Below, in pieces: positions 1,738 through 45,326 of a stretch of DNA of 64,000 bases; within the stretch, counting starts at the first letter, position 1, and each line of letters starts with the position of its first letter. The position numbers and the translations under genes are program-made. The DNA comes from an uncultured Eubacteriales bacterium. GTDB taxonomy: Bacteria > Bacillota > Clostridia > Christensenellales > UBA1242. The notes below the pieces were generated by a model, which was not told where the DNA came from, searched no databases, and saw only the letters and a list, made by a program, of their open reading frames with translations. The stretch covers positions 23,023 through 87,022 of the forward strand of contig CARJLX010000004.1 in assembly GCA_949001935.1 (NCBI GenBank), written 5' to 3'.

Positions 1738-1771
1738 CACTTTTCTTTTAAAGAAAAGTAAACAAAAGAAA
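1738..1771 (-). repeat. Polypyrimidine/polypurine hairpin element, copy A (5' UTR of the prmC fusion)
   Basis: The plus strand reads cacTTTTCTTTTAAAGAAAAGtaaaCAAAAGAAA. On the minus (gene-sense) strand this is TTTCTTTTG..CTTTTCTTTAAAAGAAAAG, about 35 nt upstream of ATG 1704. Confidence 0.7.
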
Positions 1772-1840
1772 AATAAAAATTCCCCTATTGACTCCTATAT
1801 GTTTTTGTGTTAAAATAATTATGGAATAAGGAGGGAACTT

Positions 1841-2158
1841 ATGTACGCAATTTTAAAACAAGGAAAAGCACACATATTGCACATTGTTAATACTGGCGTT
1901 AGATCTGCAATTAAAGATGGTAAGCCTATTTATTACAATTCAATTAAAACCTCATGCGGTTTTACTGGAGTTGATTATAATCTAAATAACAATATAAGCA
2001 GTTTAATTAAATACGAAACCTCTAATGTTTATATGCCAGACTACGAATTACCAATCAAGGAACGAATTTCACCTATTGAAATCTATTTCACTTTAAATAT
2101 GCCAGAGCAAATACACTATGATAAAAAATGTCCTGAGTGTTTTAAAGAAAATTTTTAA
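1841..2158 (+). CDS. Hypothetical 105-aa protein with C-terminal C-P-E-C-F-K motif
   Basis: ORF track. Strong SD (AAGGAGGGAACTT-ATG) and a terminator follows. The C terminus (YDKKCPECFKENF) resembles the C termini of the two lipoproteins at 22389 and 22786. Confidence 0.6.
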   Translation: MYAILKQGKAHILHIVNTGVRSAIKDGKPIYYNSIKTSCGFTGVDYNLNNNISSLIKYETSNVYMPDYELPIKERISPIEIYFTLNMPEQIHYDKKCPECFKENF

Positions 2159-2170
2159 TTATAAATAAAT

Positions 2171-2202
2171 AAAAAAATATCCAAAATTTTGGATATTTTT
2201 TT
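2171..2202. terminator. Bidirectional intrinsic terminator between the 1841 ORF and rpmE
   Basis: Hairpin AAATATCCAAAATTTTGGATATTT flanked by an A-run and a T-run. Confidence 0.7.
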
Positions 2203-2220
2203 AGAAAGTGGCATTGCCAC

Positions 2221-2424
2221 TTATACACCATATTTATTTTTAAATTTTTCAACATTACCACTGGCATCAACAACCTTCTTCTTACCTGTGAAGAATGGGT
2301 GGCATTTGTTGCAAATATCAATGCTCATTGTGTCACCTTTAGCGTTAGACTTTGTTTTGAAAGTGTTTCCGCAAGCACAAACAACGGTAATTTCATGATA
2401 ATCTGGATGAATTTCCTTTTGCAT
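2221..2424 (-). CDS. rpmE: 50S ribosomal protein L31
   Basis: The 67-aa product [22 protein letters not shown]...[11 protein letters not shown] carries the L31 Cys motifs. Confidence 0.95.
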
Positions 2425-2454
2425 AATCTTTCCCCTTTTATTTAAATTTTTAAA

Positions 2455-2745
2455 TTAATCTCCAACATATGGAAGAAGAGCTACATTTCTTGCACGCTTG
2501 ATAGCGGTAGTAAGTTCTCTTTGATGTTTAGCACAAACTCCAGTTTGGCGTCTTGGTAAAATCTTACCTCTTTCAGTGATGTACTTTTTGATTTTAGCAA
2601 CATCTTTATAATCAATTTCCTTTTCGCCAGCAACACAGAAAGCACAAACTTTCTTTTTTGCAGGTTTACGGAATTTCTTTGAAGGCATTGCAGCAACTTG
2701 AGTTTTCTCTTCTTTAACTGCAACTTCCTTGATTTCTTCGCTCAT
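2455..2745 (-). CDS. rpsR: 30S ribosomal protein S18
   Basis: ...[60 protein letters not shown]. The start was trimmed to ATG 2745 (SD AAAAGGAG). The longer track ORF reads through a repeat element. Confidence 0.95.
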
Positions 2746-2769
2746 GATTTTTCTCCTTTTAATGTTTTT

Positions 2770-2805
2770 CTCTTCTTTTCTTTCAAAGAAAAGAAGCAAA
2801 AGAAA
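2770..2805 (-). repeat. Polypyrimidine/polypurine hairpin element, copy B (5' UTR of rpsR)
   Basis: Gene-sense strand: TTTCTTTTGCTTCTTTTCTTTGAAAGAAAAGAAGAG, followed by ...AAAAGGAG...ATG. Confidence 0.75.
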
Positions 2806-2998
2806 TCTATATTACTGCTTTTTAAATTTGCATTAAGTTAAACGCTTCGTTTTACCAATTCGCAAATTTTGCAAAGCATTAAATTTTTTACTTTTTTATA
2901 ATTGATAGCAATTATAATTCACTTCCAATAATATAGTCGTGGGATATTTGGTACCTTGACCAAATAATCTATGTTTGTCAAATCAGGCTATAAGATAG

Positions 2999-3020
2999 CC
3001 GTGCAACATCTGGTTGCTAG
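2999..3020. repeat. GCAAC-N5-GTTGC palindrome motif, copy a (overlaps the ssb stop codon)
   Basis: The plus strand reads ccGTGCAACATCTGGTTGCtag, closely similar to the copies at 3485 and 45307. Confidence 0.6.
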
Positions 3021-3436
3021 AATGGAAGACTGTCGTCGTCATCAATAGGCTCAAGTTCACTTGTTTCCTTTTTAGCAGGCTTTGGAGTGGAAACTGGAGT
3101 GCTTTCTCCGTTGTCACTACTTCTTGAACCTAAAAATTCAACTTCGTCTGCAACAACTTCAGTTGTGTATCTCTTAGTGCCATCGCTTGCTTCATAACTA
3201 GAATTTTGAAGACGACCAACAACGGCACACTTAGATCCCTTCTTTAAAAACTTAGCACAGTTTTCACCTGCAGCTCTCCAAACAACAATGTTGAAGAAAT
3301 CTGCTTCTCTCTCGCCGTCAGCATTTTGAAATCTTCTTTGAACAGCGATTGAAAATCTGCAAACTGCAACGCCACTGTTTGTAGTTGCGAGCTCAGGGTC
3401 TTTAGTCAAATTTCCTATTAAAATAACTTTATTCAT
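3017..3436 (-). CDS. ssb: Single-stranded DNA-binding protein
   Basis: MNKVILIGNLTKDPEL... OB-fold N terminus and an acidic tail ending DDDDSLPF. The start was trimmed to ATG 3436 (SD GGAGG). Confidence 0.95.
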   Translation of the reverse strand: MNKVILIGNLTKDPELATTNSGVAVCRFSIAVQRRFQNADGEREADFFNIVVWRAAGENCAKFLKKGSKCAVVGRLQNSSYEASDGTKRYTTEVVADEVEFLGSRSSDNGESTPVSTPKPAKKETSELEPIDDDDSLPF

Positions 3437-3484
3437 AATTTCCTCCACGAATGCTCTAAAAACATTCTCTCTTGTATTTTTTTA

Positions 3485-3504
3485 TCGTGCAACATTTGGT
3501 TGCC
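3485..3504. repeat. GCAAC-N5-GTTGC palindrome motif, copy b (immediately 3' of the rpsF stop)
   Basis: The plus strand reads tCGTGCAACATTTGGTTGCC. Confidence 0.6.
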
Positions 3505-3786
3505 TTACTTTCTAACAATTTGAACGCGAACAACTGATTCGTTGATTGTCATAAGTTTTTTCAAACCGTCAACTTCATTTCCAGCGAGTTCAAAATTCAT
3601 AAGAACATAAAAACCTTCGCTCTTGAAGTTAATGTCGTAAGCAAGTTTTTTCATGCCCCATTTATCAACGCCGCTAACAACTCCACCTTTAGATTCAACA
3701 TAAGAAGAAAACTTTTTGATAATCTCCTCACGCTTTTCTTCGGTTTCGTCAGCAGAAATGATATAAAGAACTTCATACTTATTCAT
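3505..3786 (-). CDS. rpsF: 30S ribosomal protein S6
   Basis: MNKYEVLYIISADETEEKREEIIKKF...WGMKKLAYDI. The start was trimmed to ATG 3786 (SD AAAGGAGG). Gene order is rpsF-ssb-rpsR. Confidence 0.9.
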   Translation of the reverse strand: MNKYEVLYIISADETEEKREEIIKKFSSYVESKGGVVSGVDKWGMKKLAYDINFKSEGFYVLMNFELAGNEVDGLKKLMTINESVVRVQIVRK

Positions 3787-3810
3787 ATCTGACCTCCTTT
3801 TTGGACTATT

Positions 3811-3844
3811 GGTTTTCTTATATCTCAAAGAAAACAAAAGAAGC
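3811..3844 (-). repeat. Polypyrimidine/polypurine hairpin element, copy C (degenerate; 5' UTR of rpsF)
   Basis: Gene-sense strand: CTTCTTTTGTTTTCTTTGAGATATAAGAAAACC, then the SD. Confidence 0.5.
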
Positions 3845-3921
3845 AGTTTACTACTGCTCCTTTATATTAACATAATGAATATTTAATGTCAAGCATTATT
3901 TGATTTTAATTTATGGCTTTT

Positions 3922-4134
3922 TTATTCAACTTCTTCTAACAATTGATAAACTTCCATTTTAATATATCTAGCAATCTTAAATAATGCTCTAACATCAAAA
4001 TTGAAATCTTGATTAAGAATTTTTAAATAAGTTTTGTAATTAATACCACAAATTTTACAAAATCTTGTTCGACTTAAACCATTATTTTTTATAAAATCCT
4101 CAAAAATTTCAGTTTTTATTCGTGTTTCTTTCAT
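3922..4134 (-). CDS. Small helix-turn-helix (XRE-like) protein, 70 aa
   Basis: An HTH-like stretch (GLSRTRFCKICGINYKTYLKIL) and SD GAAAGGAGG. Confidence 0.55.
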   Translation of the reverse strand: MKETRIKTEIFEDFIKNNGLSRTRFCKICGINYKTYLKILNQDFNFDVRALFKIARYIKMEVYQLLEEVE

Positions 4135-4224
4135 ATTTTCCTCCTTTCAACTGGAGAATAACATAAAAACAGACACATAAATTTAAATCTGATTAACAAT
4201 CAGAATATTTTTGCTTATTTTTTT

Positions 4225-4385
4225 GAGTAAGGCGTTTGGTAAGCCCAAGGGAATTGAATGCTCTCGGTGGTTTTTGTCCACTTTTCACCAATTTGAAAAG
4301 TGAATTTTAAATATATCCCCATGAGAGTTGCGACAAATCGCCAACGCAAGTGCAATTTCGCTTGGTCGCAAATAGCGAGAACTTG
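4225..4385. ncRNA. Candidate structured RNA, unclassified, strand undetermined
   Basis: No ORF of 60 aa or more in any frame, and visibly more G+C than neighbouring intergenic DNA. It has several nested stems: TTGCGAC...GTCGCAA, CACTTTTCA...TGAAAAGTG, CTCTC...GAGAG. A bidirectional terminator bounds it. Confidence 0.3.
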
Positions 4386-4428
4386 CAAAAAACCATAGAG
4401 CTTTACATAGCAAAGTTCTATGGTTTTT
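4386..4428. terminator. Bidirectional intrinsic terminator (secA 3' end)
   Basis: AAAAAACCATAGAGCTTTACATAGCAAAGTTCTATGGTTTTT: a long stem flanked by A- and T-runs. Confidence 0.75.
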
Positions 4429-4442
4429 AAGCAAAATCAACT

Positions 4443-7172
4443 TTATTTTCCACAACAATTTTTATATTTCTTGCCACTTCCACAAGGACAAGGGTCATTT
4501 CTACCTATTTGTTTTTCAGTATTAACTATTGTTTGTTGTACATGAGGTTTTTTCTTTTTTGCTTGTTCGGCACGCTCTTCTGGCGTCAACTCCTTGCCCG
4601 TCATAACAACGGTATATTGAGGTTGAGGTGTCATTTGTTGAACTGGCTCTGGACGCTCAATTTGAGTGTTGAGTACGAATAAACAGGTCATATTTCTAAT
4701 CTTGTCTATCATCTTCTCAAACAACTCTGCACCGTCCTTTTTATATGCAAGAACTGGATCTTGATTACCAAATCCACGGGCAAAAATTTCATTTTTCATA
4801 GTTTGCATGTCTTCGATATGACTCATCCAATTAACATCAACCATTTTGAGTAAGATAAATCTTTCTATATCACCAAAATTATAGCCATACTCGTTTGCCT
4901 CTGCAACGCGGTCTTCATATCTCTTCACTACTAACTGAGTTAATTTTTCAACAACATCATTTACATCACAGTCTTCAACAAAGTCCTCTGTGACAACATT
5001 GCTACCTTTTTCAAAAAATCCCTTTTCTAGATCTTGATTAATCTCACTCAAATCCCATTCAAAATAAGGCTTATCGTCATTCAAGTATTTATAGCAAATC
5101 TTTGAAACCTGCTCTGGAAACATATTTAAAATTTGCTCATGAACAGGCTCTCCATCAAGCACTTTATTGCGTTCTGCATATATAATTTCGCGTTGTTTGT
5201 TTAACACGTCATCATACTGAAGAACCATTTTTCTAATTCCAAAATTTTGAAGTTCAATTTTCTTTTGAGCACCTTCAATTCTTCGTGAAAGCACTTTAAG
5301 TTGAATTGGAGTTGAATCGTCAAGACGCAAGAAAGTTGCCATTCTTTTGAACCAATCTCCACCGAACCTACGAATTAAATCATCCTCAAAAGAAAGGAAA
5401 AACACACTTGAGCCTGGGTCACCTTGACGACCTGCACGACCACGCAATTGATTGTCTATACGACGACTTTCATGACGCTCTGTTCCAATGATATGAAGTC
5501 CACCAAGAGCTTTAACCTCTTCCTTTTCTTTATCTGTTTCTTCTTTAAACTTATTATATAGAGATGTATATTTTTCTCTTGCTTCATTAAGTTTATTGTC
5601 ATCAACAGTGTTATAAGCGGTAGCATAGGAAATTTCTTCCTCTGTATAACCTAAATCTGTCATCTTCTTTTTAGCCATAAATTCTGGATTGCCACCAAGC
5701 AAGATATCTGTTCCACGACCTGCCATGTTAGTAGCAATTGTTATTGCATTCTTTCTACCAGCCTGAGCCACTATTTCACTTTCTTTTTCGTGGTTTTTAG
5801 CGTTCAAAACAACATGTTTTATTCCTGCATTTTTAAGTGCTTTTGAAACCAACTCACTCTTATCTATTGTTGTAGTTCCTACAAGAACAGGTTGTCCTTT
5901 TTCTTTACATTCCTTGATTTCTTCAATAATAGCATTAAGTTTTCCCTGTTCAGTCACATAAACAATATCTGCTTCATCAATTCGTTTTTTATCTCTATTA
6001 GATGGGATTGTGACAACATCAAGGTTATAAATAGATCTAAACTCGCCCTCTTCTGTCTTGGCTGTACCTGTCATTCCAGACAACTTCTTGTAAATTCTAA
6101 AGAAATTTTGAAAGGTTATTGTAGCCAAAGTTTGATTTTCGTCTTTGATTTGAACCCCCTCTTTGGCTTCTATTGCTTGATGCAATCCTGCACTAAATCG
6201 TCTACCTGGCATTATACGACCTGTAAACTCATCAACAATAACAACCTCACCTTCTTTTGTCACGATATAGTTATCATTTATGTGATAGGTAAAATTCGCT
6301 CTTAAAGCGTTATTGATATAGTGATTCAACTCTATATTTTCTATGTCTGAGAGATTGTTGAGATGGAAAAATCTTTCAGCCTTTTCAACACCACTTTCTG
6401 TAAGGTTGATTTGCTTGGTTTTTTCATCAATTTCTACATCTTGGTCTTTTTTAAGTGTTTTAGCAAACTTTTGTGCTGAAATATATCCATCACTTGACTT
6501 ATTACCTCTTCCGCTTATGATAAGTGGCGTTCTAGCCTCATCAATCAAGATTGAATCTACTTCGTCGACAATGGCAAAGTTAAGTCCGCGTTGTACACGC
6601 ATATTTTTATTAACAGCCATATTATCTCGTAGATAATCAAAACCAAGTTCGTTGTTTGTACAATAGGTTATATCTGCCTGATACGCCTTCTTTTTTTGTT
6701 GTTCGTTCATGTTGTTCAAAGTGACACCAACAGTAAGCCCTAAAAATTTATACACCTTACCCATCCACTCTGCGTCACGCTTTGCAAGATATTCATTTAC
6801 TGTAACAACATGAACACCATTCCCAGAAAGAGCGTTTAAATATGCAGGAAGAGTTGCAACTAATGTTTTACCTTCACCTGTTGCCATTTCTGCAATACGA
6901 CCTTGATGAAGAGCAATTCCACCTAAAATTTGGACATAAAAGTGACGCATATTCAAAACTCTCCAAGATGCCTCTCTTGCAACGGCAAAAGCCTCTGGCA
7001 AAATATCATTCAAAGTTTCACCAGCCTTTAGCCTATCTTTAAATTCCTGTGTGCAAGCAGTTAGTTGTTCATTTGTATATTCTTTATATTTATCCTCAAG
7101 AGCAACAACCTTGTCTGCTATTTTTTTAAGTTTTTTAACCTGAGTTTTATTTTCGCTAACAAAAAGCCCCAT
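4443..7172 (-). CDS. secA: Preprotein translocase ATPase SecA
   Basis: 909 aa with the Walker A region [20 protein letters not shown], a [19 protein letters not shown] box, and a C-terminal zinc motif [15 protein letters not shown]. Confidence 0.98.
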
Positions 7173-7355
7173 TTCAAAAGTCCTCCATTTTTATATTAGA
7201 TTTTAACACAAAATTATAAAATTGCAAAGGTTTTTTATTATTAAAACCCAAAACAATATCTCTAACCGACAAATTTCTTTAATTTTCGGGCAATTATTAC
7301 ATCAACCTCATTTCGTTTTATCTAAAATATTTGACATATTTTGTTTTATGTATTC

Positions 7356-7384
7356 TTGACTTTCGCTACTTTTGGTGTTATTAT
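7356..7384 (+). promoter_or_regulatory. Sigma-A type promoter for the 1,388-aa gene
   Basis: TTGACT, a 17-nt spacer, then TATTAT, with a TG at the extended -10 position. Confidence 0.55.
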
Positions 7385-7419
7385 ATATTTATATATTAAC
7401 TAAGTTTAAGGGGAAAGGA

Positions 7420-10400
7420 ATGACTAATAAAAAAATAACCAATAATTTAAAAGTTTTTAAAGACAAGGAAACAAGGACTCTTTCCAAAGCTGATGCCGAA
7501 GCTTTTATTAAGAGTTTTAAACATACACTATCTATGGTATCTTCTCCAGAAGATATACTTGCTATTTTTAAAACTTCTAATACAAATGTAGCAACTTTAA
7601 AAAGAGATAGTGTTGTTTTAAATGCGGAATTTTTAGGCAAAGATAATCTTGACGCATTAAAAGCCAAATTCCCTAACCTAAACTATAATGAAAGTGAACA
7701 AACAATCACTCTTCCTATGCAACCACCTGAAGAAGGTCATGTGGAAGTTTACTCTCGTGACTCTAGCGGTGAAGATGAACCAGATGGTGGCGTTTTTGAA
7801 GTGACTATTACAAATGAACAAGGTGTAAAATACACTTGTTTTATCGACCCTCTTGGCGTAACAATTAAAGATTTGAATGGAATTGTTGTTGCAGAAAAAA
7901 GAGCTAGTTTTGAAAATATAACTCAAGAGCAAATATTAGATGCAGATTTTTCACCTGAACTTGTTGAAATGATTATGGCAGGAAAAGGTCCTTTAAAATC
8001 TCCAAAAAATATAAAAGATCTTTCTCCACAACTACTTGACCTTTATTTCAAAAATGGAGTTATTCCAACTCCCCCAGCAACCCAGCCAAGATTAAAGAAA
8101 GATGAAAACAATGCATTATATTTAGGCAGTGAAGATAGTTTTCAAATTATGGCACTCCCAACTCCTAAGTCAAGTGAAAAAAGTCCAGAATTTTACTATC
8201 TCGTGAAAGATAAAGATGGTCACAAATATATTCGTGATGGACAAAATTTTGTTCCATTTGAAAAGTTTAATTTTATTATTGGGCATACTGCAAATGAAAG
8301 CAAGGACAAGCCTTTCGTGTTATTTAACAAAAATAAAGGACATGAACAAAATAGATTTGTTCAAATTCCTCTAAATGCCGATGGCAAACCAGACCCAAGA
8401 TTTGCACAAGCAATACAAGCTTTTGCCGAACAAGAACCTTCAAGAGGAAAAGGAGAAACTGTTGGTTTGGATGGCAAGCCTGTTGACTTAAATGATAAAA
8501 ATCAAATTGCATTCCAACATGCAGATATAGACTCAGCAAAACATATTGTTAAACAAACTGGGCTTTCAACTATTTCTGCTAATGCAGGTAAAGGGAAAAT
8601 AATTGATCATGATGACCCTAAACCAGATGAAAAACCTGACCAACCTAAAAAACCTTCTGCTTCTAAAGGTCCTAGAGTCAACCCTTTCCAAAAAACACCT
8701 TTAAAAACAATCAAAAAGCCTCCTATCAAAATCAATGAGGACGCTGTTCGTTATGGTGGTTTTGCACTAACCATACTAATGATTGTTTTAGCATTCATCA
8801 TGCCAGTTGCTGTTGCTCCTTTATTTGGGTTCTTAGCAGTTGGAGTACTGGCAGGTTCAACTGTACTTGCAAATAATGCTAAAGCAATCAATAATAACCC
8901 AGTAAATCAAGCCTATAACAAATATGTTCAAACATTAACTAAAACAGAACGCGAAGCAGAAAGCGAAGCTGGCAAGTTCTGGGAAGCAGAAACAGAACGC
9001 GGAAATGCTTATGATAGATATCAAGAATTTTTAGCTCAAATTTCAGGAGAAGATTTTAAAAACAGCCTTCAAGGTGCTTTATTCAATCGTTTTATTGAAA
9101 GCGGATTATGGACTGAAAGAGAATTTAAAGAGTTTTGGAGTCAAGACAGCACCGAAAAGCGTGAAGTTTTCTTAGAAGACTTACAAAATCTTTATGCGAT
9201 GCAAGCAAACACTCAAGATGAAATTAATGCAAAAACGACAAAGCAAACCGAATTTTTAAAAAAGTTTGGTATTTTAAAAGACAATGCAACCTCAACAGAA
9301 ATTGAGGAGGTATTAAAAATTTTCAACACCCCTCTTCAAGCACAAAATCCTGAAACTGGCGAACCTATGGAAATTCCTGCTGATGCTCTTATTAAAGGAA
9401 GCATTGCTTACTTAAAAGAATTTAATGGTCAAGAAGATAAAATGTTCAAGGCTCACGACAAAGTTGGAGACATCATTGAAAATTGCAGTGGCAATACTTT
9501 GCAAAAAATCATGTCACAAAAAGGCGTTAACTTTGATAGGTTTATTGAAGAACATGCACTTGATATAGCAAGACGCTTTATGTTTAGAAATGATATCACG
9601 GCTTCTCAAAAAGAAGAATTAATTTCTAAATTTAAACCTGAACAAATTGACATGCTCAAAAAGGCTAGCGAAGAAGTAAGCTCAGCAATTGCTTTTACAA
9701 GCACAACTGGAATAATTGCAAAAGGTAAAGACGACAAATTTGTTTCTGCTATAAAATCACTTGAGTCAATAAACAATGTATATACTTTAATAAATGAATC
9801 TGTTGTTCCAGCGCTTAAAAAGAAATCACAAATTGAAGACGATACTGAGGCACTTTTATGGGCCATTTATGCAGAAGATGTAAAACGCACAACAAAACCT
9901 GAAGGGACTACTGAAAGAGTTAATGTTGACTCATTATATAAAGATGTTGAAAAGTATTCAGAAAATTTCACAAATCTTATAAAATTACAACAACAAATTA
10001 TTGCCGATCCTAGAATTAAGAAAATACTTGGTGAAGAGATAGTTTTATTCAATGATAATGCAACAATATTAAGCAATATTGCTTATGGTCAAGCTGGTCA
10101 AAGTAGCATAAATGCAATATTGCAACAAATTAGCAATCAAACCAATGGTTCTCTCAAGAAAGATATAGAAACTGTTTTAAATTTAGATAACTCTCGTATT
10201 GAAGCTTTAAACAATATAACTGGCGGCATGGCTGAACAATTATATTATTCTAAAGACAACGGTGAAATATTTGAAGAACCTACAAAAGAGTTTTTAAATG
10301 AACAAATCTCTCAACTTAAAAATCAATTCCCTGCCTTCAATGGCTATTCAGAAAAAACTCAAGAATTGATTGCCAAAATGTATATTAATAAAGAAAATGT

Positions 10401-11586: not shown

Positions 11587-11612
11587 GTAATAAAATTAAA
11601 TAAAATTTATTT

Positions 11613-11642
11613 AAGGCACTAAGAAATTTTACTTAGTGCCTT
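11613..11642 (+). terminator. Terminator hairpin after the 1,388-aa gene
   Basis: AAGGCACTAAGAAATTTTACTTAGTGCCTT: an 11-bp perfect stem with a weak T-run. Confidence 0.55.
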
Positions 11643-11723
11643 AAAATCGTTTTAAAAACTTATAAAAATATGTTATATTTATATAAATATATATTCTAAA
11701 TAAAAGAAGGAACTTATTTAATT

Positions 11724-12818: not shown

Positions 12819-12825
12819 TTTTTCC

Positions 12826-12878
12826 CTTTCTTTTCTTTTCAAGAAAAGAAACAAAAGAAAACTAAATGTTGCACGACT
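12826..12878 (-). repeat. Hairpin element copy D fused to a partial GCAAC motif (3' of ychF, inverted relative to it)
   Basis: The plus strand reads CTTTCTTTTCTTTTCAAGAAAAGAAACAAAAGAAAACTAAATGTTGCACGACTG. Confidence 0.7.
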
Positions 12879-12954
12879 GTCAGTAAATTATTTTTAAAAG
12901 AAAATTAATATATATCTAATTTCTATATATGGAGGTTTAATATGGAGGTTTAAT

Positions 12955-13237: not shown

Positions 13238-13250
13238 ATATAAGGGAAAT

Positions 13251-18262: not shown

Positions 18263-18302
18263 CACTTTACTTTTCTTTTAAAGAAAAGTAAACAAAAGAA
18301 AG
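18263..18302 (-). repeat. Hairpin element copy E (3' of glnS, inverted relative to it)
   Basis: The plus strand reads CACTTTACTTTTCTTTTAAAGAAAAGTAAACAAAAGAAAGC. The core is identical to copy A. Confidence 0.75.
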
Positions 18303-18391: not shown

Positions 18392-18425
18392 AAAGCATTT
18401 GACAATAATCAAATGCTTTTGTTTT
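18392..18425 (+). terminator. Intrinsic terminator
   Basis: AAAGCATTTGA-caataa-TCAAATGCTTT (11-bp perfect stem) followed by TGTTTT. Confidence 0.7.
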
Positions 18426-18429
18426 ACTA

Positions 18430-18462
18430 TTCTTTTGCTTCTTTTCTATAAAGAAAAGAAGA
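18430..18462 (+). repeat. Hairpin element copy F (upstream of the 18524 membrane-protein gene)
   Basis: TTCTTTTGCTTCTTTTCTATAAAGAAAAGAAGA. Confidence 0.75.
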
Positions 18463-19961: not shown

Positions 19962-20068
19962 AATTTTTCTCCTTGAATAAATTATATCATTTTTCTCAAA
20001 CATCGCCAACTTTTTTAGTAATAAATCACAAAATGTTACATATATTTAAAATTGTTTGCAAAAAAGTG

Positions 20069-20097
20069 TTGACAAACGGGTTTTTGTAGCGTATACT
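20069..20097 (+). promoter_or_regulatory. Promoter of the tRNA gene
   Basis: TTGACA, a 17-nt spacer, then TATACT, about 18 nt upstream of the tRNA 5' end. Confidence 0.65.
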
Positions 20098-20114
20098 AAC
20101 AAAGTATCAAATAT

Positions 20115-20191
<77 letters not shown>

Positions 20192-25733: not shown

Positions 25734-25762
25734 ATCTTTTCTTTTGCGAAAGCAAAAAGAAA
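25734..25762 (+). repeat. Variant hairpin built from the flank module (TTTCTTTTGC-gaaa-GCAAAAAGAAA)
   Basis: Seen directly, 10 nt upstream of copy G. Confidence 0.55.
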
Positions 25763-25772: not shown

Positions 25773-25814
25773 TTTCTTTTGCTTCTTTTCTTTAAAAGAA
25801 AAGAAGATAAAAAC
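25773..25814 (+). repeat. Hairpin element copy G (5' UTR of gyrA)
   Basis: TTTCTTTTGCTTCTTTTCTTTAAAAGAAAAGAAGATAAAAAC, then GGAG and ATG 25825. Confidence 0.8.
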
Positions 25815-32346: not shown

Positions 32347-32355
32347 TTTATGTAT

Positions 32356-34145: not shown

Positions 34146-34172
34146 AAAACAACCTATTAAAGGTTGTTTTTT
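34144..34172. terminator. Bidirectional terminator at the point where plus-strand and minus-strand gene blocks converge
   Basis: AAAAAACAACCTATTAAAGGTTGTTTTTT. Confidence 0.75.
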
Positions 34173-36143: not shown

Positions 36144-36152
36144 AACAATCTC

Positions 36153-38164: not shown

Positions 38165-38175
38165 TTCCCCTCCTT

Positions 38176-39609
38176 TTATTCGTCATCACCAAATACGTCG
38201 ACGCTTTGATTAGCTTCTAAAGGCGCTTCTTCAATATCGGTTGCACTCACAGTTTCAGTTTTTTGAACCTTGGTTTTATCACCATAATTAACAAAGGTTG
38301 TATATTCGCCAATCCAACGAAGTTTAACAGTTCCAGTTCCACCATTTCTGTGCTTTGCAATAATAAGTTCAATTGTACCTGGCTCATCCTCTTGAGGTGT
38401 ATCGTTATATTTTTCTGGATTAAATAAGAAAAGAACAATATCAGCATCTTGCTCAATTGCACCTGAATCACGAAGGTCACTAAGCATTGGTCTGTGATCT
38501 TGACGAGATTCAACCGCACGAGATAATTGAGAAAGCACTATGATAGGAACATTTAACTCTTTGGCCGCAATTTTTAAAGTTCTTGAAATCTCACTCACTT
38601 CGTTGGTTCTATTTTCTGTAGACTTCTTTCCCGAACTCATAAGTTGAATATAGTCAACCATGATAAGATCTATATTATCTTTAGCCTTTAATCTTCTACA
38701 TTTTGAAATAAGGTCAGTTGGACTTGTCATTGCAGAATCATCTACATAAAGACCACTTGATTCTAGTTTTTTTGTGGCTGTCCAAATGCGTTGCCACTCT
38801 TCAGCACTCATAGTTCCCTTTAAAGCCTTTCCCATAGGTACTTTAGCAAGTGAGCAAATTGCTCTTTGCATAAGTTGCTCTCTAGACATTTCAAGTGAGA
38901 ACACCGCACATTTTTTACCAAGTTCGACAGCGGCGTGAGTAATAATATTCATTGAGAAAGAAGTTTTACCAACACCAGGACGAGCAGCGAGCAAAATCAA
39001 GTCTGAATTTTGAAGACCATTAGTTATCGCATCAAAATCTCTAAAGCCTGTTGGAATACCTTTTATTGAGGTAGGGTCTTTTGCAATAGTATCAAATTTA
39101 TCAAGTACTTTTTTGATTGCTCCACCTGGTTTCCCCACATGTTCAAGAGAAGAACGAGATTGTTTTTCGGCAATATCAAAAACAACTTGTTCTGCAAATT
39201 GAAGATCTTTGTCTTTATCTTCATTCTTAAAACTTTCTTCAATAATTTCTTGTCCAGACTTGATAAGTTTTCTTCTTATCGAATTGCTTTTAACAATATC
39301 GCAATAATAAGTAAAATTTGCAGCAGAAGGAACTGCGTTTGTCAAGAATGTAATATATTCAATTCCACCAACTTTTTCAAGAAGTTTATCTGTTTCAAGT
39401 TGAGCAGCAAGTGTGACAAAATCAACAGGAACAGAGCGTTGATAAATTTTAAGCATACAATTATAAATCTCTCTGTGAGCATCTGAGTAAAAATCGTCAT
39501 CACTCATAATAGGAAAAATATCTGCTTGAGCAATATTATCAAGCAAAATACAGCCAAGCACTGCCTGCTCGGCCTCTAAATTGTGTGGAAGCATTTTATA
39601 ATCTGCCAT
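38176..39609 (-). CDS. dnaB: Replicative DNA helicase DnaB
   Basis: LPHNLEAEQAVLGCILLD, Walker A ARPGVGKTSF, IMVDYIQLM, SQLSRAVESR, SGAIEQDAD. Confidence 0.97.
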   Translation of the reverse strand: MADYKMLPHNLEAEQAVLGCILLDNIAQADIFPIMSDDDFYSDAHREIYNCMLKIYQRSVPVDFVTLAAQLETDKLLEKVGGIEYITFLTNAVPSAANFTYYCDIVKSNSIRRKLIKSGQEIIEESFKNEDKDKDLQFAEQVVFDIAEKQSRSSLEHVGKPGGAIKKVLDKFDTIAKDPTSIKGIPTGFRDFDAITNGLQNSDLILLAARPGVGKTSFSMNIITHAAVELGKKCAVFSLEMSREQLMQRAICSLAKVPMGKALKGTMSAEEWQRIWTATKKLESSGLYVDDSAMTSPTDLISKCRRLKAKDNIDLIMVDYIQLMSSGKKSTENRTNEVSEISRTLKIAAKELNVPIIVLSQLSRAVESRQDHRPMLSDLRDSGAIEQDADIVLFLFNPEKYNDTPQEDEPGTIELIIAKHRNGGTGTVKLRWIGEYTTFVNYGDKTKVQKTETVSATDIEEAPLEANQSVDVFGDDE

Positions 39610-39618
39610 AAATTCCTC

Positions 39619-39882
39619 CTAGTGTGAAAAAGGGTCTTTTGTTTGATTTTCGACCGCTTCTCTTTCCTTCTTTTTATCAATTTTAGCACAAATCAAGAGA
39701 AATAACAAATAGAAAACCCCCGCTGTGACGATAATTATAAATCCATTCCAAACAGCAGGAATTTTAGCATAATAATCCAAAATATAACATTCAATTAAAC
39801 AAAAAATAAATATGCCAACAATAAACCACATAGTTCGCTTCAAACTTTTCTTTAAATTTCTGCTTTCTTTTGGAGCAATCAT
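39619..39882 (-). CDS. Small membrane protein, 87 aa
   Basis: ORF track; two TM segments, 9 nt upstream of dnaB. Confidence 0.5.
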   Translation of the reverse strand: MIAPKESRNLKKSLKRTMWFIVGIFIFCLIECYILDYYAKIPAVWNGFIIIVTAGVFYLLFLLICAKIDKKKEREAVENQTKDPFSH

Positions 39883-39975
39883 GCTTTTCCCTCCTTCTTT
39901 TTAAACTAAATATAAAATAAAATTTATTTTTTACTTAAAACATCCTTATTTATGCTACAATCTTTTAAAATTATC

Positions 39976-40031
39976 AACCAGCATCAATTCCGTAGTCTTT
40001 GCTTGCAACCAACAAGGAATTGATGCTGGTT
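39976..40031. terminator. Long perfect inverted repeat (16-bp stem, 24-nt loop) 3' of typA
   Basis: AACCAGCATCAATTCC...GGAATTGATGCTGGTT. Confidence 0.5.
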
Positions 40032-40045
40032 AATAATTCGCTCTC

Positions 40046-41878
40046 TTATATTTCCCCTCTCATAATCTTACCCTTCTCACGAAGTCGCATGTTATGATCA
40101 AGAATAATCTTTCTAATTCTCATACTCTTAGGAGTCACTTCCAAAATCTCGTCATCAGCAAGAAATTCGATAGCATCTTCAAGACTTAATCTCTTTGGAG
40201 GAGTTAATCTAAGAGCTTCATCAGAGCCTGATGCACGGCAATTTGAAAGATGCTTTTTCTTGCAAACATTTACAACAATATCATCACCTTTAGGATTTTG
40301 TCCAACAACCATTCCCGCATAAACTGGCACACCTGCTCCAATGAAAAGGTCCCCTCGCTCTTGAGCATTGAAAAGTCCATAAATGATAGCCTCGCCACTT
40401 TCGTGAGCAATCAAAGAACCATATTCACGGCGGTTAATTTCCCCCTTCCAAGGTTGATAACCTTCATAACTTGTGTTAATAACACCTTCACCCTTAGTGT
40501 CAGTTAAAAGTTCGCTCTTAAAACCAAAAAGCCCTCTCTCAGGAATTAAAAACTCCATTTTCATACGAGAACCGTGAGGAGTCATCCCAACAAGTTCACC
40601 CTTTCTAACTCCCATTTTCATCATTACAGTACCAGTACAATCTTCTGGGACATCAAGGAAAAGTCTATCAATAGGCTCACATTTAACTCCGTCTATATTT
40701 TTAATCAATACCTTAGGCATTGAAACTTGAAATTCATAGCCATCTCTACGCATGTTTTCAATCAAAATTGAAAGGTGCATTTCACCACGCCCACAAACTT
40801 GAAATCTTTCGGCAGTATCGCCATCGGTCACTTTTAAAGAAAGGTCCTTAACAGCCTCTTTATATAATCTATCTCTAAGATGACGGCTTGTCACATATTT
40901 GCCTTCCTTGCCAGCAAATGGACTATCGTTAACCATAAATGTCATTTCAACAGAAGGCTCTGCGATTTTTACAAATTCTAGAGGCTCTACTTTGCTTGCA
41001 TCACAAATTGTATCACCAATTTGGACATCTTCAAGCCCTGCAACACAAACAATTTCACCGATAGGAACTTCGTTTACTGGCACACGCTTAACACCTTCAA
41101 AAACAAACAAAGAAACGATTTTAGATCTAACTTGTTTTGCCTTATCGTGATAGTTGCAAAGCACAACACTTTGCCCAACACTCAATTTACCTTGTGTAAG
41201 TTTACCAACGGCAAGTTTACCAACATAGTCGTTATGTTCGGCAGAAGAAATAAGCATTTGTGCAGACTTTTCAGCGTCACCTTCTGGTGCTGGAATATGT
41301 GAAATAATTGTATCAAAAAGTGGAGTCATATCAGTTCCAACTTTGTTTATATCTGTTGAAGCAATACCTTGACGAGCAGATGCAAAAACAAATGGAGAAT
41401 TTAATTGTTCTTCATCGGCATCAAGCTCAAGGAAAAGTTCGAGTACTTCGTCTACAACTTCGCTAAGTCTTGCATCAGGTTTGTCAATCTTGTTTACAAC
41501 AACCACAACTTTAAGTTTTAATGCAAGCGCTCTTTCAAGTACAAAACGAGTTTGAGGCATTGGACCTTCATAAGCATCAACAACAAGCAAAACACCGTCA
41601 ACCATTTTAAGTACGCGTTCAACTTCCCCACCAAAGTCGGCGTGTCCCGGAGTGTCGATAACATTGATTTTTACACCATTATAAAGGCAAGAGCAATTTT
41701 TAGATAAAATAGTAATTCCTCTTTCTCTTTCAATGGCGTTTGAATCCATAACTCTGTCTTCAACCACTTGGTTTTCTCTAAAAACACTTCCTTGTTTTAA
41801 AAGTGCGTCAACCAAACTTGTCTTACCATGGTCTACATGGGCAATAATCGCAATATTTCTAATCTTTTCGTTTTTCAT
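40046..41878 (-). CDS. typA: Translational GTPase TypA/BipA
   Basis: [38 protein letters not shown], over 610 aa. Confidence 0.96.
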
Positions 41879-41912
41879 TTTTCTTTCTATCCTTTTATAT
41901 TTCTAACACTTT

Positions 41913-41941
41913 ATTTTACCACAAACAAATGCATTTTTCAA
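41913..41941 (-). promoter_or_regulatory. typA promoter
   Basis: Minus strand: TTGAAA, a 17-nt spacer, then TG-n-TAAAAT. Confidence 0.5.
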
Positions 41942-41972
41942 GGAAGTAAAGAAAAAAATATGAAAAAGTTTA

Positions 41973-42494
41973 TTATTTTAACTCTTCATCTAATTTGTCG
42001 GCAACATTAAATATTGTTTTCCCTCTATTTTTTGCATACCTAAACATAATAGAAGTTCCACTTCTTGTCAAACCAGCTTTATCTTTATTGTAATACATAA
42101 TCAAAAATTGACTATCTTTAACAATTTGTTTATCTCTCATTAAATAAGAAACTTTACCTGCATTGAATTTTTCATTGTAATAGACACCGTCAAAAAATGC
42201 AATTCGAAAATTATTATCCTTATGATCAATAGCTTCTAACTTGTTTGCAAGCTCAGACTCCTCTTTCAAATAAGCAGTTTCTGAGCGAGTGCAATATTTA
42301 TATATTTCAACATGTGGATATCTGGCTAAAATATCAACTATTGCCCAATAGCATGCATGAGTAAATTCACTACGAGAACCAAATAATATTCTATCTACAT
42401 ATTGGTTTTCAATTAAATCAACAACAATCTTTTTTACTTCTTCTAGTTTCTCTTTATCATCAAAATCTCTATGACCTAAAATTCCTAATGTCAT
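41973..42494 (-). CDS. SLOG/DUF1273 (YpsA-like) family protein
   Basis: The layout ILGHRDF...RILFGSRSEFTHACYWAIVDILARYPHVEIY... resembles B. subtilis YpsA, from memory only. Confidence 0.45.
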   Translation of the reverse strand: MTLGILGHRDFDDKEKLEEVKKIVVDLIENQYVDRILFGSRSEFTHACYWAIVDILARYPHVEIYKYCTRSETAYLKEESELANKLEAIDHKDNNFRIAFFDGVYYNEKFNAGKVSYLMRDKQIVKDSQFLIMYYNKDKAGLTRSGTSIMFRYAKNRGKTIFNVADKLDEELK

Positions 42495-42547
42495 TTACGC
42501 CCTCCTTAACGATACATTCACAACTATTATAAGCGTTTTTTACAATA

Positions 42548-42635
42548 GTTGTCAACATATTCACAATCTGTGAATACATTCACAACATATTTTTTTTAAA
42601 AATGCTAGTCTTTTCTTGTGAATACATCCACAAGG
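42548..42635. promoter_or_regulatory. Cluster of palindromic operator-like sites (TTGTGAAT-AC-ATTCACAA family) between the SLOG gene and XRE-1
   Basis: TTGTCAACATATTCACAA (42548-42565), TGTGAATACATTCACA (perfect, about 42569-42584), TTGTGAATACATCCACAA (about 42616-42633), and a half-site at 42511-42524. Confidence 0.6.
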
Positions 42636-42642
42636 AGGGAAC

Positions 42643-42876
42643 ATGAAATTACATGAGGCTGTTGCAAGAAGAATTCTTGATTATTGCAACGAAAGAGATC
42701 TTACACCTAACAAACTTTGTACAATGTCGGGCGTTATTCAATCTACAGTTAACAGCATTTTTTCTGGAAGAAGTAAAAACCCAAAAATAGGGACAATTAA
42801 TGACTTGTGTACAGGTTTAAACATAACACTTGCAGAATTTTTTGACTGCAAATATTTTATTGACCTCGAAGATTGA
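42643..42876 (+). CDS. XRE-family HTH repressor, 77 aa (copy 1)
   Basis: MKLHEAVARRILDYCNERDLTPNKLCTMSGVIQSTVNSIFSGRSKNPKIGTI.... Confidence 0.8.
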   Translation: MKLHEAVARRILDYCNERDLTPNKLCTMSGVIQSTVNSIFSGRSKNPKIGTINDLCTGLNITLAEFFDCKYFIDLED

Positions 42877-42877
42877 A

Positions 42878-42939
42878 GTTGTGAATGTATTAACAACATT
42901 AAAAATGTAAAAAGTTTAAAATGTGAATACATCGACAAC
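42878..42939. promoter_or_regulatory. Second operator pair upstream of XRE-2
   Basis: TTGTGAATGTATTAACAA (about 42879-42896) and TGTGAATACATCGACA (about 42922-42937). Confidence 0.55.
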
Positions 42940-42953
42940 TTGTGAGGTAAATT

Positions 42954-43187
42954 ATGAAATTGCATGAAGCAGTCGGCAAAAGAATTTTGGAATATTGCAA
43001 AGAACAAGACATAACTCCAAACAAACTTTGTACAAAATCGGGTATAATACAATCCACAGTAAACAGTATTTTTTCTGGAAGAAGTAAAAATCCTAAACTT
43101 GAAACGATTTACAATCTTTGTATTGGCCTTGGCATAACTTTGGAAGAGTTTTTTGCCAGCGACTTATTTATTAATTTAGACGATTAA
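42954..43187 (+). CDS. XRE-family HTH repressor, 77 aa (copy 2, tandem paralogue)
   Basis: MKLHEAVGKRILEYCKEQDITPNKLCTKSGIIQSTVNSIFSGRSKNPKLETI.... Same length as copy 1 and about 70% identical by eye. Confidence 0.8.
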   Translation: MKLHEAVGKRILEYCKEQDITPNKLCTKSGIIQSTVNSIFSGRSKNPKLETIYNLCIGLGITLEEFFASDLFINLDD

Positions 43188-43249
43188 AAAAATAAATAAT
43201 AAAAAGCATTTCGAACTTTCTATAAAGAAAGAAGGAATGCTTTTTATAG

Positions 43250-43294
43250 TTTTCTTTTGTTTCTTTTCTTTAAAAGTAAAGAAAGATAAAAAAG
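43250..43294 (+). repeat. Hairpin element copy H (between the convergent XRE-2 and uvrB 3' ends)
   Basis: TTTTCTTTTGTTTCTTTTCTTTAAAAGTAAAGAAAGATAAAAAAG. It is preceded by a mini-hairpin CTTTCTATAAAGAAAG nested in the XRE-2 terminator (43201-43245). Confidence 0.65.
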
Positions 43295-43311
43295 TAAGTA
43301 CGCAAGTACAC

Positions 43312-45270
43312 TTATCTTTTCTTATCAAGTTGTTTTTTAAGTTTTGCGATTTTGTCGCGGAATTCCATGGCACGCTCAAACTCTAATGAATTGGACGCAA
43401 TCTTCATCATAGCCGTCAACTTTTCAATCTCGCGTGGAATGTCTTCTCTCTTCAACTTGCCGTCATCAACCTTCTTGGTAATTTCAAGAGTGTTGTTTAT
43501 CTCTTTGATAATAGTCTTTGGAATAATTCCATGCTCCTCATTAAACTTCTCTTGAATTGCACGCCTACGCTCGGTTTCGCCAATTGCCCTCTTCATACTA
43601 TCGGTTATATTGTCGGCAAACATGATAACTCTGCCATTAGCATTTCTAGCAGCACGACCTATAGTTTGGATCAATGCACCTTCGCTCCTAAGAAAGCCCT
43701 CTTTGTCGGCATCAAGGATCGCCACCAGTTCAACCTCTGGCATGTCCAAACCTTCACGCAACAAATTGATACCAACTAACACATCAAACTCACCCGAACG
43801 TAAACCATTGATAATCTCGACGCGTTCCATGGTGTCTATCTCACTATGCATATATTTTGCTTTAATTTTATGCTCGGTTAAATAGGTTGTTAAACTTTCA
43901 GCCATCTTTTTAGTTAATGTCGTGACAAGAACTCTTGCCCCACTGTCGACAGTTTTATTAATTTCAACCATAAGTTGTTCAATCTGATTCTCAATCGGCT
44001 TAACTTCAATCATAGGATCTAAAAGCCCTGTTGGACGAATAACCTGCTCAACAACCTGTCCAGCCCTTTCAAGTTCATACTTGCCAGGAGTTGCCGAAAC
44101 ATAGACAACTTGCCCTAATTTAGAATTAAACTCTTCAAAAGTAAGAGGCCTATTATCTCGCGCAGCCTCCAAACGAAAACCATAATCGACAAGAGATGTT
44201 TTTCTTGCTTTATCTCCATTAAACATTGCTCTAACTTGTGGAAGCGTCATATGGCTTTCATCAATGATAGTTAAAAAGTCTTTTGGGAAATAATCTATAA
44301 GTGTAAAAGGTGGCTCACCTGGTCTACGCCCATCAAAATATCTAGAATAATTTTCTATTCCACTACAATAGCCAATCTCTCTCATCATTTCAAGGTCATA
44401 AGAAACGCGTTGAGCAATACGCTCACTTTCTATATATTTACCCTGCTTTTCAAAATCTTTTGCAGCCTTTACTCTATCATTTTCTATTTTCTCAAGTACA
44501 TTCTCCATTCTCTCTCGGCCAACTACATAGTGAGTAGCAGGATAGATTGACACAACTTTCAGTTGATTTATAAGGTTGCCAGATACAGGTTCAAATTCAT
44601 ATATTTTTTCAATCTCATCACCAAAGAAAAGAACTCGAATAGCCATTTCACTCTGGTTTGAAGGGAAAATATCTAAAGTATCACCTTTAACTCTAAAAGT
44701 AGAACGTTTAAAATCTATATCATTTCGCATATATTGAATTGAAATGAGCCGAGATATAATTTCATCTCGATCTACCAAATCACCCTCACGAAGAGAGATG
44801 TGTAATCTTTCATATTCTTCTGGGCAACCCAAGCCATATATACAAGAAACTGATGCTACAATTATAACATCATCACGCTCCAAAACCGAAGCAGTGGCTG
44901 AAGAGCGAAGTTTATCAATCTCTTCATTGATAGACATATCTTTTTCGATATATGTATCCGAAGAAACAATATATGCCTCTGGTTGATAATAATCATAGTA
45001 TGAAACAAAAAACTCTACTCGATTGTTCGGGAAAAACTCTCTAAATTCATTGCAGAGTTGAGCGGCAAGCGTTTTATTATGTGCAATAACCAAGGTTGGT
45101 TTTTTATTATTTTTTATTATGTTTGCCATAGTGAAAGTTTTTCCACTACCAGTCACACCTAAAAGAACCTGTTCTTTTAAACCATCCTGCAAGCCTTCTG
45201 TTAATTTTTCTATTGCCTCTGGCTGATCACCAGCAGGCTTATATTTAGATTGCAAATCAAACTCTGCCAT
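43312..45270 (-). CDS. uvrB: Excinuclease ABC subunit B
   Basis: [45 protein letters not shown], and a C-terminal UVR motif [15 protein letters not shown]. The start was trimmed to ATG 45270. Confidence 0.97.
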
Positions 45271-45278
45271 TTTTAACC

Positions 45279-45326
45279 TCTTCTCTTCTTTTCTTTTAAA
45301 GAAAAGGCAACCAAATGTTGCACGAC
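45279..45326 (-). repeat. Hairpin element copy I fused to a full GCAAC-N5-GTTGC palindrome (5' UTR of uvrB)
   Basis: Gene-sense strand: GTCGTGCAACATTTGGTTGCCTTTTCTTTAAAAGAAAAGAAGAGAAGG, then TTAAAAATG. Confidence 0.75.

Follow-up and report, generated by a model that had tools for sequence, protein, structure and literature searches.

We examined a 64-kb window (contig CARJLX010000004.1 of assembly GCA_949001935.1, positions 23,023 to 87,022; 33% GC) from an uncultured Eubacteriales bacterium of the Christensenellales, which carries nine copies of a short hairpin element. It is well supported that these copies are local members of a large, apparently undescribed family of intergenic repeats of Clostridia, with units of 40–50 nt. 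Judged from its sequence, the element is very probably a triplex-coded hairpin repeat: a hairpin with a pyrimidine 5′ arm and a purine 3′ arm is preceded by a second pyrimidine block (block 1) that would serve as third strand. We propose that it is a structured repeat comparable to the repetitive extragenic palindromic (REP) sequences and to BoxC, in which the folded single strand, most likely of DNA, would be the selected state. For the structural description and the DNA-level mechanism taken together, we give a compromise probability of roughly 0.55.

On the strand oriented to read pyrimidine-pyrimidine-purine, hereafter the sense strand, the family consensus is RAAG - TTCTTTT (block 1) - G - NNN(N) - CTTTTCTT - TTCA-type loop - AAGAAAAG - N′N′N′(N′). 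The blocks measure 7–11 nt, loop 1 consists of the G and 3–6 nt, and loop 2 of 3–6 nt. The upper stem is a near-perfect palindrome, and the pyrimidine arm comes first in 172 hairpins, the purine arm in 2. A preliminary description of the window, made from its letters and open reading frames (ORFs), had reported a pyrimidine block followed by a hairpin with only pyrimidines in its 5′ arm and only purines in its 3′ arm. All of this is present, but the single undivided hairpin that it drew is better described with a separate, variable lower stem. This lower stem, of 3–6 bp, is located between block 1 with its G and the 5′ arm; its sequence is not conserved, yet it is complementary to the bases 3′ of the purine arm. 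Pairing is found at 462 of 513 positions (90%), compared to 52 ± 2% when partners are swapped among copies. In an alignment of 40 sequences (A2), 97.5% of cells pair and all four lower-stem pairs vary on both sides (e.g. CG 23, GC 10, AU 2, UA 2). Two-sided changes occur there in 38 cells versus 9.7 ± 2.5 after shuffling, and none of 500 shuffles gave a value as high. Since the lower stem covaries, the hairpin is longer than first drawn and is kept as a structure by compensatory change. Lower-stem mismatches (20 G.T and 14 A.C) have no strand bias and are uninformative on which strand is transcribed. As RNA, the window hairpins fold at about -9 to -12 kcal/mol.

Block 1 changes together with the hairpin that follows it. 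Variant blocks were taken from secondary copies, which were retrieved with a covariance model and are free of the constraint of the search pattern. More than a dozen sequence variants were found among them, and in each block 1 mirrors the 5′ arm. Insertions or deletions and T-to-C changes hit all three blocks jointly, clearly asymmetric arms included. One variant carries an extra T in the three blocks (block 1 TTCTTTTT, 5′ arm CTTTTTCTT, purine arm AAGAAAAAG) and another one T fewer (TTCTTT, CTTTCTT and AAGAAAG, in the same order). A T-to-C change in block 1 accompanies a change from T-A to C-G in the stem (CTCTTTTC, CTTTTCTC, GAGAAAAG), and a shifted C is seen in TTTTCTT, CTTCTTTT and AAAAGAAG. 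Other variants are TTTCTCTTT, CTTTCTCTTT and AAAGAGAAAG; TTTTTCC, CCCTTTTT and AAAAAGGG; and CTTCTCTTTT, CTTTTCTCTTC and GAAGAGAAAAG. By mirroring the 5′ arm, block 1 complements the purine arm in parallel Hoogsteen pairing (T.A-T, C+.G-C). Mirror symmetry rules out antiparallel Watson-Crick pairing and is exactly what a pyrimidine third strand parallel to the purine strand requires.

The relation was quantified by permutation and by the spacing of the C/G bases, two statistics that take no account of descent among the variant classes. The longest match between block 1 and its own arm averages 6.28 for the mirror reading, versus 4.98 in mismatched pairs, and 0 of 5000 permutations reach 6.28; the direct-repeat match, at 5.85, is modestly lower. 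In 186 of 264 hairpin strands, the C/G bases of block 1 are spaced like the G bases of the purine arm, compared to 121 ± 4 in shuffled sets. Where block 1 departs from the consensus, spacing agrees in 39 of 116 cases versus 9.6 ± 2.5. These tests were used instead of a longest-common-substring comparison of mirror and direct readings on automatically parsed hairpins, which is blunt because T-runs match anything. Block order, the T.A-T/C.G-C code, stems of 6–15 nt and loops of 1–6 nt are those given for potential intrastrand triplex (PIT) elements, which have been described in bacteria (Holder et al. 2015, PMC4666352). We infer that the sense strand encodes an intrastrand pyrimidine-motif triple helix, class IV in the naming of Hoyne/Maher and Holder (PMC4666352), and that the complement is laid out as a class II purine motif.

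Family membership was assessed with a three-block pattern, TTCTTTTG-N3-5-CTTTTCT-N2-6-AGAAAAG, with which a species-representative genome collection was scanned once. At least 119 genome loci, mostly of Clostridia, carry it, where we estimate that roughly 1–10 matches would be expected by chance. Among the matches listed, about 97 loci have Clostridia-type labels, namely Oscillospiraceae, Oscillibacter, Acutalibacteraceae, Christensenellaceae, Ruminococcus, Gemmiger, Faecalibacterium, Pseudoflavonifractor and Intestinimonas, and 12 have other labels. The carrier loci include cultured isolates and closed long-read chromosomes, and a few phage-like contigs also have the element. Their GC content extends from 29 to 65%; the A/T-rich core is therefore kept even in very GC-rich genomes. 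A covariance model built from foreign copies finds many secondary copies in the foreign loci. Strict extra copies occur around the index copies at no less than 0.066 per kb, and the window holds about one copy per 7–9 kb, which implies hundreds per genome. The nearest syntenic loci of the window in the collected set are Christensenella-like.

Several subfamilies coexist per genome, and lineage-specific modules flank the core. The module of high-GC Oscillospiraceae is a 5′ hairpin, GCGAAAC-GNA-GTTTCGC, that itself covaries; that of Oscillibacter has CACCAGAG..TAGAGCGGTAT on the 5′ side and CCGCCGGAGGCC on the 3′ side, and that of Acutalibacteraceae is a GCC..CGGCGAG hairpin on the 3′ side (flanking modules were seen at loci L014, L031, L066, L067, L073, L101, L115; L022, L065, L070; L035, L040, L047, L077, L100, L102, L120). 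Tandem arrays of three or four units, spaced by 50 or 100 nt and with differing lower stems, are found at L029 (700-850), upstream of an nrdR-like gene, and at L063 (1218-1566). A larger variant with arms CTTTTTCTTTTC / GAAAAGAAAAAG (L026, L044, L061 and L079, e.g. L079 2710-2764) has a triplex-coded pyrimidine block on both sides, so that both its strands read as class IV. Outside Clostridia, a related triplex-coded hairpin, TTCTTTTG ATT CTTTTCT CCGT AGAAAAG AAT, is carried by phage-like contigs 95% identical to one another and by one Rikenellaceae-labelled contig (L021, L125-L128, L132).

Within the window, the hairpin pattern CTTTTCT-N2-6-AGAAAAG occurs 7 times compared to a mean of 0.01 in dinucleotide-preserving shuffles, and the three-block pattern 6 times compared to 0.00, which confirms the earlier observation of a repeat. 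An element is present at each of the nine positions where the preliminary description had placed one (Table 1). With a covariance model from foreign genomes only, seven full-length window copies are recovered (18260-, 25766+, 2766-, 1730-, 18422+, 12820- and 43244+; E 1e-8 to 2e-3). What had been taken for a variant at 25734 turned out to be a separate pyrimidine/purine hairpin, looped by GAAA and located about 10 nt 5′ of copy G; it exemplifies the separate hairpins often seen 5′ of block 1.

Table 1. Copies of the element in the window and the companion hairpin of copy G (sequences on the strand indicated; slashes separate block 1, 5′ side, loop and 3′ side)
Feature	Position	Strand	Sequence	Match or fold	Setting
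Copy A	1736..1773	-	TTTTTCTTTTG / TTTA-CTTTTCTTT / AAA / AGAAAAG-TGAA	exact pattern match; 36.3 bits, E = 3e-6	31 nt upstream of ATG 1704 (minus strand); also upstream of divergent gene at 1841
Copy B	2772..2806	-	ATTTCTTTTG / CTT-CTTTTCTTT / GAA / AGAAAAG-AAG	pattern match; 37.4 bits; RNA hairpin -11 to -12 kcal/mol	ssb-rpsR spacer; rpsR ATG 26 nt further
Copy C (degenerate)	3812..3842	-	TTCTTTTG-TTTTCTT / 9-nt loop / AAGAAAAC	covariance model E = 0.5 only; blocks read directly	block 1 and both arms present, no lower stem; 25 nt before rpsF ATG
Copy D	12827..12862	-	GTTTTCTTTTG / TTT-CTTTTCTT / GAA / AAGAAAAG-AAA	pattern match; 30.6 bits	antisense to ychF; 8 nt from ychF stop codon to hairpin
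Copy E	18266..18302	-	CTTTCTTTTG / TTTA-CTTTTCTTT / AAA / AGAAAAG-TAAA	pattern match; 47.1 bits, best match	antisense to glutaminyl-tRNA synthetase (GlnRS) gene; 7 nt from GlnRS stop codon to hairpin
Copy F	18430..18461	+	TTCTTTTG / CTT-CTTTTCT / ATAA / AGAAAAG-AAG	pattern match; 34 bits	62 nt before ATG 18524; directly preceded by terminator-like hairpin 18392-18419
Copy G	25773..25806	+	TTTCTTTTG / CTT-CTTTTCTT / TAA / AAGAAAAG-AAG	pattern match; 40.2 bits; fold z = -3.7	gyrA ATG (25823) 16 nt downstream
Copy H	43250..43284	+	TTTTCTTTTG / TTT-CTTTTCTTT / AAA / AGTAAAG-AAA	24.3 bits, E = 0.0016; one arm mismatch	antisense to uvrB; 27 nt beyond uvrB stop codon
Copy I	45285..45309	-	hairpin only, CCTTTTCTTT AAA AGAAAAG	hairpin pattern match; partial covariance-model match, model positions 21-38	small hairpin GCAACATTTGGTTGC in place of block 1; uvrB ATG ~14 nt on
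Companion hairpin	25737..25762	+	TTTTCTTTTGC-GAAA-GCAAAAAGAAA	fold -10.2 kcal/mol, z = -3.3	

Six window copies (A, B, C, F, G and I) face a start codon and three (D, E and H) lie in the opposite sense past stop codons. Copy H folds poorly because of its arm mismatch, and in copy I the match to the hairpin spans 45288-45306. Promoter scans are at background level in this AT-rich DNA, and only the promoters of rpsF and of the gene at 1841 stand out. Copy C is inside the rpsF leader, because the promoter TTGACA-17-TAATAT (3892-3864, minus strand) is upstream of it. A weak promoter-like site, GTGAAA-18-AATAAT, overlaps the 3′ end of copy A. The promoters of the genes at copies A and F likely lie at or after the element, and the 5′ untranslated region (5′ UTR) to which these two copies had been assigned is not established for them.

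Other features were noted beside the copies. A second short repeat, TCGTGCAACATTT(G/A)GTTGCC, is present at 3486-3505 (+), 45310-45330 (-) and 12865-12885 (-) and contains the small hairpin GCAAC-ATTTG-GTTGC; it stands directly 5′ of copies I and D, and its copy at 3486 abuts the rpsF stop codon and is followed by a decayed remnant of the element. Beside copy H, a 235-nt direct repeat of 73% identity (42643-42877 and 42954-43188) overlaps an unannotated ORF (42738-43052). The sole other public contig with the 18524 gene begins in copy F (window 18436; L001) and ends in a tRNA. For two window proteins, the only other matches are in short Logan contigs of one sample, ERR3473661. Away from the copies, a partial T-box leader match (63844-63969, +; 44.7 bits, E = 1e-6, gathering score 93) is truncated by the window end. 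A very A/T-rich stretch at 61296-61439, with a phased repeat of 10–11 nt (TTTTTTATTATTTTTTATTGA...), occupies the divergent spacer between an ORF of 3880 amino acids (49411-61053, minus strand) and a gene at 61516. A match to the Staphylococcus small RNA S774 (20050-20134, +) is near the Rfam threshold (46.2 bits versus gathering 48) and overlaps a tRNA-Met start.

Across the family, placement follows gene ends. Both neighbours could be called for 98 copies, of which 35 lie between convergent, 10 between divergent and 53 between same-strand genes; spacer counts of the same loci predict about 20, 18 and 61, respectively (p about 2e-4). Among members with a callable neighbour, the hairpin side faces the stop codon of a convergent gene in 73 of 117 and a same-strand start codon in the other 44. 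The preliminary description had placed the element mostly in 5′ UTRs upstream of Shine-Dalgarno sequences, a statement that holds for six of the nine window copies but not for the family. The family follows no orientation rule relative to genes: between same-strand genes, 27 copies are sense and 26 antisense. The element nevertheless has its own polarity, the nearer coding sequence being that on the hairpin side in 75 of 97 copies (p = 6e-8). Where the gene on this side runs towards the element, in convergent or antisense-tandem contexts, the median distance from hairpin base to stop codon is 6–13 nt. The stop codon of the neighbour is sometimes inside the element, and the TAA of "TAAAG" is often that of the upstream same-strand gene. 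Structure is stronger in the 48 nt 5′ of block 1 than in the 48 nt past the hairpin (mean z -1.70 versus -0.53, p = 4e-5). This structured stretch is frequently an intrinsic-terminator-like hairpin; in the window, examples precede copies F (18392-18419) and G (25737-25762).

Orthologous sites gave a view of turnover. In three Christensenella-like species, whose flanking genes are 81–87% identical, an element is found directly upstream of gltX and of ychF in each. At these sites the core is kept and the spacer is unalignable, and a compensatory change is seen in the lower stem (TTTA/TAAA versus CTTA/TAAG). An additional unit in opposite orientation is present upstream of ychF in two of the three species, and an additional tandem unit upstream of gltX in one; these extra units were cleanly gained or lost as whole units, and no flanking duplication accompanies them. 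In a pair of Oscillibacter-like genomes of about 80% identity, the copies are found in different spacers. At one site of this pair, the element of one genome corresponds to a canonical terminator in the other, and at another a gene takes its final two codons and its stop from the element.

The account that we favour places the action of the fold in DNA, at moments when replication, supercoiling or a mobilising enzyme opens the duplex. A fold of this kind would explain why copies are intact either way round, why they sit in dispensable spacer by coding ends and terminators, and why subfamilies and single-unit gains and losses are seen. Since half of the copies are antisense, many sense copies stand behind terminators and purine-motif triplexes do not form in RNA (PMC4666352), the fold shared by all copies would be one of DNA, in which one strand adopts class IV and its complement class II. 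The repeat would be propagated or tolerated through this fold, and effects on the mRNAs that contain copies would be secondary. Transcribed copies should give an mRNA hairpin of -9 to -12 kcal/mol, and sense copies perhaps an RNA triple helix too; located 7–30 nt from stop or start codons, such a hairpin could affect decay or ribosome access, as for rpsR, rpsF, gyrA and uvrB. That this DNA-level, mobile-like account is the main reason for the existence of the element we propose only tentatively, at somewhat less than even odds.

Several points weigh against this account. A core identical across very different genomes, and kept at orthologous sites while the flanks diverge, would fit a host function. 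Triplex formation is deduced from covariation of sequences only, and the pattern behind every index copy had its three blocks fixed, which leaves only the secondary copies unbiased; gene calls in the foreign loci are crude, as longest ORFs. In H-type pseudoknots, one or two nucleotides of loop 1 are enough to cross the deep groove when the helix is short. By analogy, it appears feasible that a single-G linker would let the triplex and the lower stem coexist, a geometry that should be easier in A-form RNA than in B-form DNA. Neither a terminal inverted repeat nor a target-site duplication is evident, the hairpin being the only inverted repeat; among the suggestions of the preliminary description, that of a repeat like miniature inverted-repeat transposable elements (MITEs) comes closest, but these two MITE features are missing. 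Finally, a phmmer search with E. coli RayT against 5507 ORFs (~0.9 Mb around the elements), a weak test with a single query, gave one weak match, in L061 (E = 2e-4), without Pfam support, and no RAYT partner was found near the copies.

The main rival reading is at the RNA level. The hairpin of a sense transcript would then hold the 5′ U-rich block in its major groove (U.A-U, C+.G-C), as a miniature, all-in-cis analogue of the MALAT1/ENE (element for nuclear expression) triple helix, and would guard the mRNA end from exonucleases or gate ribosome access to the Shine-Dalgarno sequence or stop codon. RNA triplexes form from blocks in this order (a U-rich Hoogsteen block, a U-rich Watson-Crick block and an A-rich block), intrastrand triplexes of the pyrimidine motif are known from RNA (PMC4666352), and a one-nucleotide linker over a helix of 3–6 bp would suit the deep A-form groove. 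Retention directly upstream of gltX and ychF points in the same direction, as does the tight, conserved placement beside Shine-Dalgarno sequences: the start codon is 11–26 nt away in 10 of the 27 sense tandem cases, and 14–31 nt away for five genes in the window. Against such a role stand the even split of sense and antisense copies between same-strand genes and the terminator-like hairpins directly 5′ of block 1 in many copies, which would leave the sense strand of these copies rarely transcribed. The setting seen most often is antisense, right behind a stop codon, where the purine motif would form no triplex in RNA, and G.U is not in excess over A.C in the lower stem. We consider this reading rather unlikely. 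Far less probable is the earlier model, in which a 5′-UTR element for translational enhancement or sequestration would flip between two Watson-Crick hairpins that exclude each other. It draws on the window copies that face a start codon and on copy A, for which RNAfold chooses the alternative pairing. That register requires a lower stem starting with AA on the 3′ side, which most window copies have but which is open to only about a quarter of the family; most members do not face a start codon, copies A and F are probably at or upstream of promoters, and variants of block 1 track the arm as a mirror and not as the direct repeat that alternative pairing demands.

A plain REP- or MITE-like hairpin repeat without a triplex would fit placement and turnover; block 1 would then be a single-stranded protein recognition sequence, like the GTAG of REP, and its mirror relation a product of low complexity or shared descent. 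Matches are indeed high in a T-rich background, and the direct score comes close to the mirror score. A protein site is not expected, however, to follow the stem sequence, while here the mirror relation survives three-block changes in at least a dozen subfamilies, and no permutation reached the observed match or spacing values; we regard this reading as improbable. The location near stop codons, the enrichment between convergent genes and the one site where a related genome has a canonical terminator instead suggest an intrinsic terminator, and the palindromic upper stem could be the operator of a dimeric DNA-binding regulator. A terminator, even the weak one suggested earlier, should have a U-run after the hairpin, which is found in neither orientation: on the sense strand the U-rich tract comes before the hairpin, on the antisense strand the A-rich CAAAAGAA comes after it, and the stem is itself A/U-rich. 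Ordinary terminators are present in the genome (e.g. 2163-2202), and a terminator scan of the window flagged hairpins next to the copies and none of the copies themselves. A lower stem free to vary and yet complementary is the mark of a folded strand and not of a duplex protein site. We find a terminator or operator very hard to support; both of these, like the two-hairpin switch, failed when tested directly. CodY/LexA-type operators, DNA uptake sequences, attC, dif, parS, CRISPR repeats and anti-Shine-Dalgarno pairing were also considered and rejected for their misfit to the covarying lower stem or to the copy number.

The element was compared with described systems. At the gathering threshold, Rfam 15 matched only a tRNA in the window, in agreement with the preliminary description, which had recognised no named repeat family; at E <= 5 the sole overlap is "6A" (23.9 bits versus gathering 41.2). 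A full-text literature search by element sequence returned unrelated papers only. Searches by topic (RAYT/Clostridia, triple helix, covariation, mirror repeats) gave no description of the family, and BoxC/TMECO as sole precedent. BoxC/TMECO is an abundant PIT member of E. coli and other Proteobacteria (Hoyne et al. 2000, as summarized by Holder et al. 2015, PMC4666352). Its pattern is CCCTCNCCC-N3-6-GGGNGAGGG-N3-GGGNGAGGG, a GC-rich, purine-motif class II layout found in Proteobacteria and Cyanobacteria; A/T-rich motifs are rated close to chance in the same paper, and Clostridia are not mentioned (PMC4666352). Like BoxC/TMECO, the present element strings a pyrimidine arm, a purine arm and a (reverse-)Hoogsteen block together on one strand with short loops, and it has the partner triplex class on the complement, many dispersed intergenic copies and a tie to local sequence turnover. 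In contrast to BoxC/TMECO, it is A/T-rich with the core TTCTTTTG...CTTTTCTT...AAGAAAAG, occurs in Clostridia, is best read as pyrimidine-motif class IV, and has an extra covarying lower stem between third strand and hairpin.

The element resembles REP sequences and bacterial interspersed mosaic elements (BIMEs) as a short extragenic palindrome with a single-stranded 5′ motif that is conserved. Like them it lies by gene ends, close to stop codons, in many copies (nine in 64 kb, by estimate hundreds per genome) and in both orientations, is enriched at operon ends and has positions that are in part shared and in part variable between relatives. Unlike them, it lacks the GTAG motif and occurs mostly as single copies, not inverted doublets; its core is shared across families and orders instead of being species-specific, and its 5′ motif is coded by the stem. 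In the MALAT1, MEN-beta and PAN ENE structures, U-rich Hoogsteen, U-rich Watson-Crick and A-rich strands form U.A-U runs broken by C+.G-C; these elements are eukaryotic or viral, exist as single copies and clamp a 3′ A-rich tail in a larger stem-loop. Triplex chemistry and strand order would be alike, but the bacterial element is a contiguous 45-nt repeat with half of its copies antisense to local genes. Block 1 and the 5′ arm also form a homopyrimidine mirror repeat as in H-DNA, with arms of 7–11 nt and a spacer of 4–7 nt. Classical H-DNA tracts are longer and without an adjacent inverted repeat, whereas here the purine partner is on the same strand and a single strand suffices. What this family adds to the known PIT class is a triplex repeat that is rich in A/T, has a pyrimidine motif and a lower stem and occurs in Clostridia, together with comparative support for its third strand.

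For those who handle these genomes, the element has practical consequences: it appears to break short-read assemblies, as in the contig that starts inside copy F, creates spurious N-terminal ORF extensions and sometimes provides the stop codon of its neighbour. Bacterial intramolecular triplexes have so far been argued mostly from in vitro work and motif counts. The family adds variants in which the third strand changes with the duplex, the same logic by which RNA secondary structures have been established, and a defined 45-nt sequence in cultured gut Clostridia makes the triplex question directly testable. It is possible, though on balance we doubt it, that the element is a compact triple-helix module under selection, present in hundreds of copies per Clostridia genome, with its third-strand pairing visible as Hoogsteen covariation and its fold (in RNA for sense copies, in DNA for all) used at gene boundaries, where it might cap mRNA ends or mark sites for a structure-specific enzyme. 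If true, this would be the first family-wide comparative evidence for functional intramolecular triplexes in bacteria.

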